NCBI GenBank assembly: GCA_963713855.1
Contig: OY970209.1
Span: forward strand, 928,001 to 992,000
Origin: an uncultured bacterium
GTDB lineage: Bacteria > Babelota > Babeliae > Babelales > Babelaceae
Direction of reading: 5' to 3'
Length of the DNA stretch: 64,000 nt
A program made the translations under genes and the position numbers. The notes below the pieces were generated by a model that had not been told where the DNA came from, searched no databases, and saw only the letters and a program-made list of their open reading frames with translations. Positions within the stretch are counted from its first letter, which is position 1. Every line of letters starts with the position of its first letter. Below, one piece after another: positions 25,702-33,034 of this stretch.

Positions 25702-25909
25702 GACGTATTCCTCATTTTATTTTGGTTACTGAATCATGATGTGACATTATTTGATACTATATGTCACTTTCCAGATTAATCGAATTTCACATTTTGTACA
25801 GTTTTGCTGGATTTGATGCTTGCCTCTTTTTTTGATATTGGCGTTTTTATACTTTGCTTTAGAGTCTAAAATAAGGTATCATGTACACACATTTTATTTA
25901 AGGTGGCTT

Positions 25910-26626
25910 ATGTTACTAGCTTTAAAGCACACGGTACTTTTTAAGCTTCTTTCACACGCTGATGGATTAAGTCAGTGTTTATTTTGGGGATTGATTGCAC
26001 TCTCAATAGCGTGCTGGTCAGTCTGGTTTTACAAATTTTTTACCGTGCGTAGAACAATTAAACATGTACAACACATACTTGTAGCTCTTGAACATGCTAC
26101 AACGCTTGAAGAGCTTGTAAGCTTTGCAACAACGGTGCACAAAACTGTTCCCGGAAGACTTATTACTGCTGGGTTTGGGGGTCTTAGAAGGTCGTCAAAA
26201 TTGGGATTATTGCATGATGAGCATGAACTCATTTCCTCCTCTCTTGAACACGCTGTTAATACACTCGTTGAAGAACAGGAAAGTTATCTAGGCCTTCTTC
26301 GTTTGGGTAGCGAAACGGGACCGCTTATAGGGCTTTTTGGAACTGTATGGGGACTAATACATGCCTTTAATCGCATTAGCGAAAAACAGACCGCTGATAT
26401 ACCGACGGTAGCACCTGGTATCGCTGAAGCGCTTGTTATTACGCTTATTGGTCTTTTTGTTGCTATACCAGCTCTTGTTATGTATTCTACACTTTCGCAT
26501 CAATTGAACATTCTTGAGAAGAAATTGTGGGCGCTTTCTGACAAAGTGCTTACGTTATTTAGTGTAAAAGTCACGCAGGCTACGAATATTGCATATGAAA
26601 CAACGGCGCCTCAATCTGAAGCGTAG
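25910..26626 (+). CDS. tolQ: TolQ/ExbB proton channel
   Basis: PLIGLFGTVWGLI, VAPGIAEAL, GLFVAIPA. Confidence 0.9.
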   Translation: MLLALKHTVLFKLLSHADGLSQCLFWGLIALSIACWSVWFYKFFTVRRTIKHVQHILVALEHATTLEELVSFATTVHKTVPGRLITAGFGGLRRSSKLGLLHDEHELISSSLEHAVNTLVEEQESYLGLLRLGSETGPLIGLFGTVWGLIHAFNRISEKQTADIPTVAPGIAEALVITLIGLFVAIPALVMYSTLSHQLNILEKKLWALSDKVLTLFSVKVTQATNIAYETTAPQSEA

Positions 26627-26978
26627 AGAGCTTCCTACAATAACTCTTACTCCGTTAATAGACACGGTTCTCGTGCTACTCATAATTTTTATGGTTACAA
26701 GCCCTACAAAGGCACCTATCGAAGTTGCTAAAGCGGAGCTAAAACCGGATACTTCTATAAAAGCGGTTGTTGTAATAATTGATGCTCAAGGAAGGATAAG
26801 CATCGATGGCAGTTTTGTCAAAGACACCGAGTTTTTAAAGCAGCTCGAAAAGCGCTTAAAAGGATTACCTTTCAAAGTCGTTCGACTTCACGCACAGCAA
26901 GGTGCATCTGGTGCGCTTGTGCACAAAGTACTTGATACAGCAAGAGGTATACATGGTGTTAAGCTTGCCTTTTGGTAA
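26595..26978 (+). CDS. tolR: TolR/ExbD
   Basis: ITLTPLIDTVLVLLIIFMVT. Confidence 0.9.
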   Translation: MKQRRLNLKRRELPTITLTPLIDTVLVLLIIFMVTSPTKAPIEVAKAELKPDTSIKAVVVIIDAQGRISIDGSFVKDTEFLKQLEKRLKGLPFKVVRLHAQQGASGALVHKVLDTARGIHGVKLAFW

Positions 26979-27876
26979 AAAACTTGAAGTGCCGGGTACT
27001 GTCATAGCTTTTCTATGCTCGCTTGCATTACATCTTCTGCTTGTTATAGCTCTTTTGTGGTCGCCATTTCGTTCTTCAACTTTTAAGCTTACTGGATTTT
27101 ATGGTCAACAAATCAAAAACAACAAATCGGTAAGTAGTTCCGTTAAAGTTGATAACCGTATTCCCAAGGAACTTCTTGAAGCACTTAAAACTGAAGTGGT
27201 TGTGAAGACGCCGATAAAAAAGACCGAAGTGCCAAAGCCGAACATTGCTCATGAGACCGCCTTACTTTTAAAAAAGGCCGAGGCTTTAAAAGCTATAAAA
27301 GCCAAAAAAGCGCAAAAAATAAACGAAAAGACGAAAGTCCTGAAAGCTGAAGCTCCTGCAGTAGAAAAGCCTTTGCAGCAGGCAGTTTCTGCAGAGTTAA
27401 AAGAAGAAAAGGTTGCAAAGGTTATTGAAACTGCTGTGGTAAAACCCGTTGAAAATAAAGTTATCGCAATGAAAGATAAAGAAGCTACGATTGAGAAAAA
27501 GAAGGAGAGCTCAGTACTTTCAAAAACACAGGAACAGATCCAGGAGCTTTTTAGTGAGCAGGGACACTTTAGTATCGAAGTTAGTGGTCAAGTAAAACCT
27601 GTCGAAAGCCCTGATAATGAAATGCAAGCTCTCAAGTTTGCTCAAGAGGTAAATCGCCTTATAAATGAACAGTGGGACCCTATGGCAGGATGGGAAGATG
27701 CAGGCCCCGTCGTTATTAAAGTATCTTTACAAAAAGCGGTCGATGTGTATCGTGAGCCAGAACTAGTACTTGAGTCAAAATCGATTGCTAAAAATCAGCA
27801 TGCCCTTAATATAGTCCGTGCCTTGGTGCGATCGGGTGCTATGCATGGGTGTGTTTTTAATTTAACGTTTAAATAA
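26953..27876 (+). CDS. TolA/TonB-like energy transducer
   Basis: TM helix with SLALH motif, K/E/A-rich linker, C-terminal domain (INEQW); directly follows tolQR. Confidence 0.75.
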   Translation: MVLSLPFGKKLEVPGTVIAFLCSLALHLLLVIALLWSPFRSSTFKLTGFYGQQIKNNKSVSSSVKVDNRIPKELLEALKTEVVVKTPIKKTEVPKPNIAHETALLLKKAEALKAIKAKKAQKINEKTKVLKAEAPAVEKPLQQAVSAELKEEKVAKVIETAVVKPVENKVIAMKDKEATIEKKKESSVLSKTQEQIQELFSEQGHFSIEVSGQVKPVESPDNEMQALKFAQEVNRLINEQWDPMAGWEDAGPVVIKVSLQKAVDVYREPELVLESKSIAKNQHALNIVRALVRSGAMHGCVFNLTFK

Positions 27877-27968
27877 TAGCAGTCGCATGTTGTGGGCTTA
27901 AAATAATGAAGGGATAGTAGCGCAGAGCCGGCATTTCAGCCAGCTCTGATTGTCTAATGGAAAGTATC

Positions 27969-28496
27969 TTAAAGTTCTTCTCTGAACTTTTTACCAGTAC
28001 CCTGTTCTTGTGCTAGATCTGATTCAAGTGCATTAAAACGGCTTTGTACTTCTTTAAATGTATCATAGGCTTGATACATTTTTTCGATTTTTGTCCCGAT
28101 CTTATCAATGATAGCTACAGCGTACTCTTTTCCTAGCTCCTTCATCGTTTGGGCCAAGTTTTTTACAAAATATACAATTTTGCTGACCGGTTTTTTTTGT
28201 GAAGGTAGGGTGGCTATAAATGTGTCAATTTCAGGGATAAATTGAGAAAGACTTCTATATAGTGCTAGTTCATCTCTGATTTCTTGTAGTTTTTCATATA
28301 AAGCATTCTCTGCGCTTTTAAGTTGCTCGTAAGCAGTGTTTAAAGCTTGTTCTTCTAAAAAGATAGCAATTTTGAGTCTTTCAATTTGCGTTAGAAAATG
28401 GGATTTGATATGGAGTTGCGATCTACTATCCATATTTGAAAAAGTGACTATCGATAATAGGGACAAGGTTATCATTTTATAGAGAACTCTCTTCAT
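27969..28496 (-). CDS. Hypothetical secreted coiled-coil protein
   Basis: Signal peptide, heptad-rich body, AAGGGA RBS. Confidence 0.65.
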   Translation of the reverse strand: MKRVLYKMITLSLLSIVTFSNMDSRSQLHIKSHFLTQIERLKIAIFLEEQALNTAYEQLKSAENALYEKLQEIRDELALYRSLSQFIPEIDTFIATLPSQKKPVSKIVYFVKNLAQTMKELGKEYAVAIIDKIGTKIEKMYQAYDTFKEVQSRFNALESDLAQEQGTGKKFREEL

Positions 28497-28685
28497 GGAT
28501 TTTCCCTTTCATTAAGCACTACCTTCTGATTTAATTTTATCATATTTAATTAAAATTGTAATAATAACTCAAATAAATAATAGTTTGAGTGCTGTTGTAT
28601 TCTTTAGGCGTGAACGCCTTGGGCAGAAGATGATTTTTTTGATAAACTCTCTTAAACATAATTAAATTGAGAAGAAAGTTTACCC

Positions 28686-29969
28686 ATGCTCAAGAGATAT
28701 TCTATAACCTTCAGTCTTCTTTTTTCTTCTTTTTTGGCCGGTACTCAAAATGATATCGTGTCTATTACAATAGATAATACCCAGAGCGCAAAACAAACCC
28801 AAAAGCGGATGCCTCTCTTTATAGGAGGAATTCACTTAGAGGAAGGTTTGGTCGACGTATTGCCTTTACTTAAAGCTGATTTGGAACTTAGTAAGCAATT
28901 TGCCGTTAAGACACAGATACTTGAAAAGCCTCCCTTGAAGAAAAATATTCAAGAACTCTATGCTCAAGGGTACCTTTTGGCTCTCTTTATTAATAAGTCT
29001 CCTTCAAAGGACGCTTTTGAGTGGCGCTTATATAACACTTCATCCGGCAGCTTAGAAAAAGGTAGGACAGTTCCGATGAGCGGGAAGGGTCCTGAAGTTT
29101 CGGCGCACTCGCTTTGCCATGATGTTTGGAAAGAACTAATGGGAAGCCCGGGCCCCTTTACGAGCCGCTTATGTTACATGAAGCGATTGCCAATGCCTGG
29201 TAAATCCTTTTTAACAAACCTTTGTGTGACTGATGTACATGGTAAGAAAGTGCAAACCCTTTTTTCCACCGAGAGAATCAGCGTAGCTCCCCGTTGGAGT
29301 TCACATACAATGGGTCAGCACATCCTTTACTCAGAATTTACGCCTTCAAACGTGCGTGTTGTATCGGTGGATATGGAAGGAAAAAAGCGAGTTATTTTAG
29401 ATTTTGAAGGAACCTTAGCAGGTGTATCCTTTCACCCCACTACCCTAGATATGGTGTACGGCCGATCCGGTGGGATATGGCAATGCTCGTATGATCCCAC
29501 CACAGCTAAGTCTAAGCATATCCTTCTTGTGCGGGAGAACGAGGCTTGTGCCTGCCCGACCGCTTTGTCGAATGGGGACGTTATCTATTGCTGCCAGGGT
29601 AAAATCAAACGCTATGTTAAAGCAACTGGTAAACGTAATCTTCTTGTGGATCAAGGCTATACAGTAGGCCCAGCTTTCCACGAAAAAAGCGGCCAATTAG
29701 TGTATTCGAAGCGAGTAAAAGGAGTGATACAGCTTTTTCTCTGCTCTATCCCTGCCGATAAGCATACCCAGATTACCTTTGAAGCTGGCGATAAGACTGA
29801 TGCCTGTTGGTCAGACTGTGGTACTTGGCTTGCTTTTAATGTTGAGGCTCAGGGTAAAAGTCGTATAGGGCTACTCCATGTCAAAACGGGTACCTTTTAT
29901 TACGTAACTCGAGCAGACTCGGATTGCTGTTGTCCCGCATGGTCACCGCTTTTTGCGCATGATAGCTAG
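28686..29969 (+). CDS. tolB: TolB-like beta-propeller protein
   Basis: TolB N-domain (ADLELS..F, AH...D...ELMG.PG.F.SR) plus PD40-like repeats ending CPAWSP. Confidence 0.8.
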   Translation: MLKRYSITFSLLFSSFLAGTQNDIVSITIDNTQSAKQTQKRMPLFIGGIHLEEGLVDVLPLLKADLELSKQFAVKTQILEKPPLKKNIQELYAQGYLLALFINKSPSKDAFEWRLYNTSSGSLEKGRTVPMSGKGPEVSAHSLCHDVWKELMGSPGPFTSRLCYMKRLPMPGKSFLTNLCVTDVHGKKVQTLFSTERISVAPRWSSHTMGQHILYSEFTPSNVRVVSVDMEGKKRVILDFEGTLAGVSFHPTTLDMVYGRSGGIWQCSYDPTTAKSKHILLVRENEACACPTALSNGDVIYCCQGKIKRYVKATGKRNLLVDQGYTVGPAFHEKSGQLVYSKRVKGVIQLFLCSIPADKHTQITFEAGDKTDACWSDCGTWLAFNVEAQGKSRIGLLHVKTGTFYYVTRADSDCCCPAWSPLFAHDS

Positions 29970-30080: not shown

Positions 30081-32731
30081 ATGAAAAACAAAACACATTT
30101 TAAATCGATGCGAAGTGGGCCTCGTCATTTCTTTTTTTTGATTAGTGCGACTGTCTTAGGGTTAATTCTCTTGACTAACCTGATAGACCATTCCCGCTTG
30201 ACGCAGCCGATGCCCTATTCTGCTTTTTGGAAGAATGTTGAGCTTGGCCACGTAAAGTCAGTGCGTATAATAGGTCAAAAAATACATGGTGCGCTAAAAG
30301 ATAATAAAACTCAGTTTGAGACTGTAGCACCTGAAAACAACCCGCAGTTATGGGCTCTTCTTAAAGAGCACGGTGTTGAGGTAACATTCTCTGAGCCGCA
30401 CGCCTTGGCAGCCGGCTGGCATTGGGTTGCTCTTATGGGCTTATTGGTTATGGCAATCTTCGTATGGCTCCTTTTAAGGCAATCTCGAGGATCCGGTTCT
30501 TCTAGTAGTACTATCTTTAGTATGGGTAAAAGCCGGGCAAAGATGATTTCGCCTACACAGGTAAAAATTAATTTCTCTTGCGTTGCTGGTGCCGAGGAAG
30601 CAAAGCAAGCTCTTGGTGATGTTATCGATTTTTTAAAACATCCTGAAAAATTTAAGCGCTTGGGGGCTAGACTCCCTCGAGGCATTTTGCTTGTTGGTGA
30701 GCCTGGAAATGGAAAAACGCTTCTTGCAAAAGCTGTTGCAGGTGAAGCAAATTGTCCATTTTTTATTGTAAATGGGTCAGATTTTGTAGAGGTATTTGTG
30801 GGCGTTGGTGCTGCTCGCATACGGGACCTTTTTGCACAAGCTCGAAAGCAAGCGCCATGCATCGTCTTTATTGATGAATTTGATGCTATTAGCAGGCAAC
30901 GCGGCACTGGCCTTGGTGGAAATAATGATGAGCGCGAACAGACTCTTAACCAGCTTTTGACCGAGCTTGATGGTTTTGAAAGTCAAAATGTACCCGTTGT
31001 AGTAATTGCAGCAACTAATTTATCTGACGTTCTTGATAAAGCCGTTTTGCGGCCAGGAAGGTTTGATCAACGTATTGATATCCCATTTCCTGATACAAAG
31101 GCAAGAGAAGATATTTTGCGTATTCATGCGCGCGATAAGCGTATTTCTTCTGATATAGATTTTAAGAACATTGCTCTTGATACTGCTGGCTTTAGTGGGG
31201 CTGATCTTGCAAATCTTATTAACCAAGCGGCCCTTATAGGCTCGAAAAAGGGACATGATGTCGTTACGTTAACTGACATACAAGAAGCGAGAATTCGCCT
31301 TTTTAAGTCGCAAGAAACGCACGCTAATGTGGGAGCAAGTCAGAAGGGAGCTGCTAATGCGCGCCTTTTTATGCCCTCTCAGATTAAAACAACGTTTAAA
31401 GACGTTGCTGGTATAAAAGAGGCAAAGGAAGAGGTTGAAGATATAATACATTTTCTTGCGTCAGCCAGAGAAATTTAAACGCTTGGGTGCACGAATACCT
31501 CGTGGTGTTCTTCTGGTTGGAGACCCGGGAAATGGAAAAACGCTTCTTGCAAAAGCTATAGCTGGTGAAGCTCAATGTCCGTTTTTTAGTGTGAGTGGTT
31601 CCGACTTTATTGAAATGTTTGTCGGCGTCGGTGCTTCACGCGTGCGGGACCTTTTTACGCAGGTACGAAGGCACTCACCAAGTATTGTGTTTATTGATGA
31701 GATCGATTCTATTGGTGCTAGCAGAACGGGAAGTGGCCATGGTGGCGATCAGGAGCATAGTAGGACACTTAATCAGCTTCTAGCTGAGATGGATGGTTTT
31801 AATACGACGGGCAACGATACCATTGTTATTGGTGCAACAAACAGAGCAGATATTCTTGATAGTGCTTTATTAAGGCCGGGAAGGTTTGACCGTCAGGTTA
31901 CGGTACCTTATCCAGATTTGGCATCTCGCGAAGAGATCTTGCAAGTGCATGCTCGTGGCGTGATTATTGACGAAGGTGTCAACTTGAGGACTATAGCACG
32001 TGGTACTCCGGGCTTTTCTGGTGCTGATTTAGCTAACCTTATCAATGAAGCGGCGCTTTTTGCATCAAAGCAGGGGCATGAACGTGTGTTGCCGAAGGAC
32101 TTTGACGAGGCGCGAGATAAAATTATTATGGGTAAGGAGATGCGATCAATTGGCTTATCTCCAAAAGAGCTTAAAATAACAGCCTTTCATGAGGCAGGGC
32201 ACGCTTTAGTGCGGCTTTTAATGCCCGACGTAACCGATCCGCTTTATAAAGTGACAATTATACCTCGAGGCGCCTCTTTAGGATCGACTCATTATTTGCC
32301 TGAGCGCGAGAAATACACTTCAACTAAAGAAGAAATGCTTGCCTCGATAATGTCCGCGTTAGGTGGTCGTATTGCAGAGGAAATAGTATTTAATACGCTC
32401 TCTACCGGTGCATCAAGCGATTTTAAGGTTGCTACGGATATCGCTCGTAAAATGGTTTGCAGCTACGGCATGACTGATAATCTCGGTGTTATGTTATATG
32501 AGGCGCCATCGTATAGTAACCGCCAGAGCTATTCTCAAGAGACTGCGCATAAGATTGATGAGGAAATTCGTTCAATTCTTAAGGCATGTTATGATAAAGC
32601 AAAGGAGCTTCTTTTGGCCCATCGAGAAAAACTGGACAAGACTAGCCCAGCTTCTTCTGGAAAAAGAGACTTTGCATGCTGACGAAATTTATGCTTCGCT
32701 TGAGATTGTAAGAACAGAAAAAGTCTCTTAG
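30081..32731 (+). CDS. ftsH: ATP-dependent zinc metalloprotease FtsH with two tandem AAA+ domains (about 882 aa after correcting two apparent +1 frameshifts near 31452 and 32639)
   Basis: Two TM helices with periplasmic domain; AAA1 ([20 protein letters not shown]); AAA2 ([20 protein letters not shown]); HEAGH protease motif; LLEKETL tail in a third frame. Confidence 0.88.
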
Positions 32732-32833: not shown

Positions 32834-33034
32834 ATGTCACGCATCTGCTGTGTCTGTGGCAAAGGGCCTCAGGTAGGTAATATTGTGAGCCACGCCAATA
32901 ATAAAACGAAAAGATGGGTTTACCCCAATGTCCATCGTATGCGCTTTACGCTGTCTGAGCACGATAGCCGAGTAAAGAGTGGCAATGTGTGCTCTAAGTG
33001 TATGAAAGCAAAAAAAGTTATTAAATTCGTTTAA
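32834..33034 (+). CDS. rpmB: 50S ribosomal protein L28 (Zn-binding form)
   Basis: [25 protein letters not shown]...VCSKC. Confidence 0.95.

Follow-up and report, generated by a model that had tools for sequence, protein, structure and literature searches.

AAA+ proteases have been described with one or two ATPase modules per chain; passages of a review (PMC7226402) place two modules in Cdc48 and ClpA/B/C, to which that form is confined in what has been described, FtsH always being single. FtsH is a membrane-anchored enzyme that draws in damaged proteins and degrades them. Its canonical form, for which we took as reference TIGR01241, MEROPS M41 and the structures PDB 7vhp, 7tdo, 2ce7 and 3kds, as well as AFG3L2 (6nyy) and YME1 (6az0), combines two membrane helices, an FtsH_ext domain, a classic AAA module and an HExxH M41 protease in one chain. 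According to excerpts of PMC12067869, FtsH protease domains form a stable hexamer, and every solved one is hexameric. Here, we describe an ftsH gene from an uncultured member of the Babelota, located in a window of 64,000 nucleotides (i.e., the whole stretch of DNA that was analysed, to which positions refer unless another contig is named). The gene has the N-terminal helices around a periplasmic domain, the M41 domain and the TIGR01241 match of its family, and it has the AAA+ module twice, whereas ftsH of other bacteria was single-module at 80 of 80 sampled loci (the top scorers among 594 in 1/64 of the collection, a background sample with no named Babelota).

A search of the full-text literature, with subscription journals outside its coverage, returned no description of tandem AAA modules in FtsH; the architecture may stand, uncommented, in domain databases. 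The Babela genome paper reports an expansion of ATP-dependent zinc proteases and leaves FtsH unnamed in the main text, and its additional files may list architectures (PMC4378268); in PMC4776705, no passage on proteases was found. As far as searched, an FtsH with two complete ATPase modules is undescribed, and we regard it as a non-canonical member of the FtsH family.

Architecture and reading frame of the window gene

The gene occupies positions 30081..32731 of the forward strand, as do all features given here, and comprises ~882 codons (computed after discounting two extra bases). It is annotated as three frames, namely, ORF1 (30081-31478; 465 aa), ORF2 (31456-32682; 408 aa), and a third frame (32642..32731, including the stop) that holds the C-terminal protease helices and agrees with the ends of intact orthologues. 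Two transmembrane helices, recognised in the sequence, lie at 30129..30185 (a hydrophobic stretch; helix 16-41 in the model of an orthologue) and 30417..30476 (helix 112-138 in that model), and the FtsH_ext periplasmic domain (PF06480; aa 18-105) spans 30132..30395, with 31.1 bits against a cut-off of 25.5. The membrane-proximal AAA+ module 1 (30537..31304) has its Walker A motif at 30696-30719, pore loop at 30795-30803, Walker B motif at 30870-30884 and arginine-finger motif at 31050-31067. A linker of 18 aa (31305..31358), which varies among homologues and is of low confidence in the orthologue model, leads to the protease-proximal AAA+ module 2 (31359..32133), in which the same four motifs lie at 31519-31542, 31618-31626, 31693-31707 and 31873-31890, respectively. 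The Peptidase M41 domain (32155..32640) carries HEAGH at 32188-32202 and the conserved Asp at 32419-32421. All of these motifs were read from the sequence, their labels (Walker A and B, pore loop, sensor, arginine fingers) being established knowledge. The catalytic motifs are all intact in both modules: module 1 combines a canonical pore-loop 2 with a diverged exit helix, and the Arg that follows sensor 1 is replaced there by Leu, and module 2 combines a diverged pore-loop 2 with a small domain and a protease exit that are both canonical.

The first-pass annotation had described one chain with two full AAA+ modules and a single M41 protease; the motifs that it named in both modules, as well as HEAGH, are all in place in the window sequence, and the Pfam domains and the intact orthologues agree with its domain order. 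More specifically, ORF1 matches FtsH_ext, AAA and AAA_lid_3, and ORF2 matches AAA, AAA_lid_3 and Peptidase_M41 (PF01434, 187.5 bits). The intact orthologue (L003) from a genome of the same genus (G001) is a single frame of 884 aa that scores 1158.7 against TIGR01241 (cut-off 600), with the window's ORF2 and ORF1 reaching 606.1 and 506.2 alone. A tblastn search with both ORFs against the whole 1.52-Mb genome of the window (G000; E 1e-4) returned this locus only, making it the sole ftsH of that genome. The gene is a housekeeping ftsH with a whole AAA+ module duplicated inside it.

Compared with the intact genes of G001 and of a further relative (G008), the window gene has just two gaps whose length is not divisible by three, both of them a single extra base (near 31451..31455 and near 32639..32641). 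As a frame control, 400 kb of G001 (20 stretches of its 1.6-Mb genome) gave 207 ORFs of at least 200 aa, 120 of them with an orthologue in G000. Frame changes were found in 6 of these 120 orthologues in G000 versus 1 of 155 in the reciprocal comparison, and the six include rpoB, rpoC and ftsH itself. The frameshifted rpoB and rpoC lie at 648685-657061 of contig G000:C1, and frame changes run at ~0.05 per kb of conserved coding sequence, so that other split genes in this assembly deserve doubt. On both sides of the first break, ftsH has a dN of 0.14-0.26 versus a dS of 1.6 or saturated. Because rpoB and rpoC are broken alike in the same assembly and purifying selection extends past the first break, the two ftsH frameshifts are most likely assembly indels, as the first-pass annotation had supposed. 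Programmed frameshifting was also considered and is not needed, given the intact relatives and the background indels.

Distribution, divergence and history of the modules

Sixteen of 40 relatives carry the gene as one uninterrupted frame (882-925 aa) in which AAA is matched twice, and all 14 of these that were fetched have two Walker A motifs and one HExGH each. A 191-aa query across the junction, calibrated on 30 loci (two-module genes at least 192 bits, single-module genes at most 148 bits), was found unbroken (i.e., over its full length and free of stops) in 49 of the 260 other phylum genomes and in 8 of 21 families, and fragmented assemblies may hide more. The tandem architecture proposed as a search target across the Dependentiae is thus present there, and two-module FtsH is common to about a fifth of the phylum. 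By family, the junction was detected in 19/40 (f1), 2/4 (f2), 6/8 (f4), 9/10 (f10), 1/8 (f13), 5/5 (f15), 2/2 (f17) and 5/80 (f21) genomes, all five two-module cases of f21 having one strong FtsH match each; the query found no unbroken junction in the 13 other families or, overall, in 211 of the 260 genomes. Among the best 120 junction matches in a protein collection, 115 have two Walker A motifs and one HExGH, and five have three. The 7 of these 115 with a taxon name are all assigned to Babeliales, Babeliaceae, Dependentiae or TM6, on which our placement of the host in the Babelota is based, and the homologous proteins carry a plain FtsH label in databases.

Single- and two-module ftsH share the same tolB-ftsH-rpmB locus, and thus the duplication arose inside a housekeeping gene. 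In the window, the conserved neighbours are a tolB-like gene upstream (28686..29969; TIGR02800, below cut-off) and rpmB, encoding L28, downstream (32834..33034; profile match and locus comparison). At least one of tolB and L28 was present in the fetched flank at 29 of 33 double and 49 of 53 single loci; this count excludes the window locus itself, one repeat locus and six loci of secondary paralogues. The adjacency of tolB to ftsH is kept across the phylum. Positions 25820-29969, directly upstream of ftsH, hold tolQ-like and tolB-like genes, both below the NCBIfam cut-off, and the two genes between them resemble tolR and tolA by position. A scan for promoters and terminators stayed at chance level. 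Secondary FtsH-like paralogues with short, unrelated N-termini were seen at six loci (L065 in G113, L081 in G040, L083 in G019, L080 in G035, L082 and L084); L065 is a second double, L081 is sister to the module 2 and protease of its own lineage (SH-aLRT 100), and the paralogue of G035 lies directly behind ftsH. Furthermore, contig C7 of G008 encodes a second, canonical FtsH of 651 aa (L078) that falls outside the Babelota rows of the module tree and may be bin contamination (7%).

The two modules of the window gene are 70% identical in DNA (496 columns) and 61% identical in protein (222 codons), with a pS of 0.67, and are therefore no assembly echo, in line with the old duplication that had been proposed. 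We aligned 115 module pairs and 53 single Babelota FtsH proteins separately, module by module. The Walker A Lys/Thr, the Walker B Asp-Glu, the aromatic-Val-Gly of the pore, DGF, the sensor Asn and both arginine fingers are conserved at 100% in both modules (n = 115). The Arg after the sensor Asn, present in 98% of singles and 99% of module 2 copies, is lost in module 1 (Met in 54%, Ile in 34%). Module 1 has also lost a number of residues of the small domain as well as the Arg-Asp...Gly motif at the protease exit, and keeps the canonical pore-loop 2. Module 2 retains the Arg after the sensor, the small-domain residues and the protease exit, carries Tyr instead of the pore Phe in 88%, and has lost the pore-loop-2 consensus. 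Core similarity to the single-FtsH consensus is 0.88 for module 1 versus 0.75 for module 2. The two Walker A motifs are spaced by 269-279 aa (mode 275), the D1-D2 offset of p97 being 273 as taken from coordinates, and the Babelota linker is variable, with a top residue mostly below 50%. In the protease, 54 of the 55 positions conserved in at least 90% of the 53 singles stay conserved in at least 75% of 113 doubles, and HEAGH with its downstream Asp is conserved at 100% in 113 homologues. The kept positions include T786, M798 and G803 (L003 numbering), which match, by motif and spacing only, T654, M666 and G671 of AFG3L2, named as protease-ring interface residues in the part seen of 10.1101/551085.

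In a quick tree built from 145 modules, the 35 module-2 rows all fall into one group (SH-aLRT 86), which also takes in five rows from single or odd paralogues as well as an odd module 1, and 34 module-1 rows group with 47 singles (SH-aLRT 90); the modules of G000 sit with those of G001 and G008 (SH-aLRT 99 and 96). In the protease tree, doubles and singles interleave, the doubles not forming one clade, with 12 changes, three of them forced by strong branches. In AU tests, a better tree was obtained when 17 module-2 rows were held together (p-AU 0.78), and a duplication private to G000, G001 and G008 was not rejected (p-AU 0.29). A single origin of the two-module form in the Babelota is favoured, and one old duplication followed by repeated reversion fits best. 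Given the 211 genomes lacking the junction and the interleaving on the protease tree, the second module is dispensable or easily lost. Identical runs of at least 23 bases between modules occur within one gene in 11 of 34 cases versus 23 of 326 pairs taken across genes; this hints at occasional gene conversion, with shared codon use as a confounder. The window modules share the longest run among the 34 double genes, 30 bases across Walker A (near 30696 and near 31519), possibly through recent gene conversion.

A mostly actinobacterial family of two-, three- and four-module FtsH is separate in origin from the Babelota form; actinobacterial modules are set apart on the module tree (SH-aLRT 100). 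Among the 120 proteins listed in a junction search with the three-module protein P0091, 70 have three modules and HExGH, 44 have two, two have four (P0132 and P0133), and four are without HExGH; those with names are from Actinomycetota, except for one from Chloroflexota. TIGR01241 matches P0132 in four stretches. The linker of this family is Arg-rich and highly conserved over 198 copies. In a set of 150 cluster representatives (50% identity), at least two modules together with M41 were present in 42, of which 32 carry two, nine carry three and one carries four, and a third four-module, one-protease protein is P0249. We also observed P0227 (1905 aa), with an FtsH N-terminus, four FtsH-type AAA and two ClpX-like stretches and no HExGH motif, and P0253 (1428 aa), with two complete AAA+M41 units in series.

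Candidate assemblies of the two-module chain

A homohexamer with ATP- and zinc-dependent proteolysis, as in the FtsH family, is predicted for the window protein. The interface residues are conserved, the kept T786, M798 and G803 positions fitting six protease domains. On balance, six chains probably form two stacked, working motor rings on one protease ring: the protease interface is kept, six chains bring twelve modules, which most simply make two rings, and the order along the chain would place module 1 beneath the membrane, with module 2 next to the protease. Thus, of the double ring proposed in the first-pass annotation, the stacked rings stand as the most likely assembly, and the geometry of the modules was not fixed by monomer models. 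A module period of 275 residues close to the 273 of p97, the kept protease interface and the complementary loss of motifs in the two modules are sequence features consistent with stacking. Six chains would then build a membrane anchor, a stack of two ATPase rings and a single protease ring, with substrate threaded through them in series and each module presumably hydrolysing ATP and oligomerising with its own kind. Ring 1, with its canonical pore loops beside the membrane, would engage and extract the substrate, and ring 2, with canonical protease contacts and mostly Tyr in its pore loop, would keep pulling and feed the zinc site, a split of labour much like that between D1 and D2 of ClpA. We would guess that the longer channel gives more grip on stable substrates. 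Against the stacked two-motor reading stand the four fifths of phylum genomes that manage with one module, as well as the dispute over whether FtsH is a weak unfoldase in the first place (passages of PMC9601784).

A first AlphaFold monomer model (14 sequences) had a pTM of 0.43 and was uninformative, with an rmsd to p97 of ~10 Å. A second one (114 sequences) reached a pLDDT of 86.8 and a pTM of 0.56, with an rmsd to p97 of 18-23 Å; its alignment was misregistered at the junction, where the aligner had slipped by one repeat and only 15% of rows matched the first sequence over approximately residues 240-480. The p97-like arrangement of modules is absent from both models, which constitute a weak test either way. 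Module 2 plus protease of the model matches AFG3L2 (6nyy) with a Z of 38.1 and an rmsd of 2.5 Å over 447 residues. The linker of p97 is conserved and ordered according to excerpts of PMC4730245, and since that of the Babelota protein is variable, tight ring-ring coupling is doubtful.

This variability, together with the low confidence of the linker in the model, is also what one would expect if six chains built the normal ring from module 2 and module 1 formed a tolerated, loosely coupled second ring that adds little force and mainly spaces the motor from the membrane or captures substrate. Module 1 would then be kept since the pore would be blocked by a module that had died, and recombination between the repeats would return lineages to one module. 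Both forms do occupy the same locus (29/33 doubles and 49/53 singles with tolB or L28), singles and doubles interleave on the protease tree, and within-gene identical runs are enriched (11/34 versus 23/326). The ancestral first half is kept by module 1 and the ancestral second half by module 2, from which we infer that a crossover would yield a canonical FtsH. Moreover, passages of PMC11570520 describe a division of labour in ClpA in which the D1 ring adds little grip. However, the catalytic residues have been fully retained in both modules over very long times, module 1 is the nearer to the single-FtsH consensus in its core (0.88 versus 0.75), whole families retain the double form (f10, f15 and f4), and an independent family, in which the linker is highly conserved, grew to as many as three and four modules. 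We consider the loosely tethered extra motor unlikely.

Somewhat less likely still is a single six-membered ATPase ring, or a continuous spiral, in which modules 1 and 2 alternate, for instance from three chains, with fewer anchors and protease sites per ring. All inter-subunit motifs are kept in both modules, the linker is long and flexible enough, the commonest module counts (two and three) divide six, and the models are not p97-like (18-23 Å), all of which would suit such a ring. In contrast, the protease-ring interface is as conserved as in single FtsH, also in the three- and four-module proteins, and all solved FtsH protease domains are hexameric in the excerpts cited above (PMC12067869). 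In addition, the four-module, one-protease relatives, few as they are (the three found being P0132, P0133 and P0249), count for stacking because four does not divide six. Finally, that the G000 gene is truly broken or split (as a pseudogene, as a gene for two separate proteins, or as a chimera assembled from two ftsH paralogues, the last two having been raised in the first-pass annotation) would account for its two frameshifts but is highly improbable, given that relatives have unbroken single frames (16/40 relatives and 49/260 genomes of the phylum) instead of two separate proteins, its two modules fall with the G001 and G008 ones on the module tree, rpoB and rpoC show the same type of break, the genome has this ftsH only, and purifying selection acts throughout the gene.

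If the rings are stacked, FtsH may repeatedly have grown a motor tower, with two active rings in the Babelota and two, three or four in the mostly actinobacterial family per membrane-anchored protease ring, a generalisation that we advance tentatively and with some doubt. To our knowledge, AAA+ unfoldases have no more than two stacked rings. If true, such a tower would offer a natural series measuring each added ring's contribution to grip and force.

Comparison with described systems

The Babelota are host-dependent bacteria and, apparently lacking ClpP, would be reliant on FtsH and Lon: in G000 (91% complete), ClpP and HslV gave no match and two Lon genes are present, and among 261 genomes of the phylum strong ClpP matches (PF00574) occur in 3, the other 48 being weak partial matches. 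ClpP is missing from single- and double-module lineages alike and thus does not explain the pattern; its loss as the driver of the second module was rejected. The only Band_7 match in G000 lies at 224912-225487 of contig G000:C1, HflK/HflC, the regulator of FtsH, requiring two proteins. Close relatives in which the same locus carries one module or two, together with another family of two to four, all with intact catalytic motifs, form a ready comparison for asking how much grip on substrate a second ring gains and whether the unfolding strength of FtsH limits its substrates.

Among described systems, the chloroplast Ycf2/Orf2971 proteins are likewise FtsH-derived and, in the parts seen of PMC9421593, have two predicted AAA domains in some green algae; unlike the window protein, they have lost M41, act as a protein-import motor, and have predicted AAA domains of 96 and 114 aa rather than full FtsH modules. 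ClpAP and ClpCP, if the rings stack, would be alike in that two serial motors with divided labour feed a peptidase (passages of PMC11570520). Nonetheless, D2 of ClpA is of a different clade, and ClpP, a serine protease, is a separate protein (passages of PMC7226402), whereas both window modules are FtsH-type, the zinc protease is fused to them, and the genome has no ClpP match. Consistently, no ClpA model matched L003 at 1e-10, both of its modules matching FtsH models, and an HCLR-clade D2 with a separate ClpP is not what this locus encodes. The parallel with ClpA/ClpB drawn in the first-pass annotation thus holds by function only, and because both window modules are FtsH-type, p97/Cdc48 is the closer architectural parallel. 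Cdc48, p97, VAT and NVL (type II AAA+, TIGR01243) share with the window protein two tandem classic-clade AAA modules at nearly the same period (275 versus 273), whereas the window protein, with a TIGR01243 score of 457.9 below the cut-off of 802.65, has an FtsH_ext N-terminus and no p97 N-domain, and unites membrane anchor and protease in one chain, its modules being recent FtsH copies joined by a variable linker.
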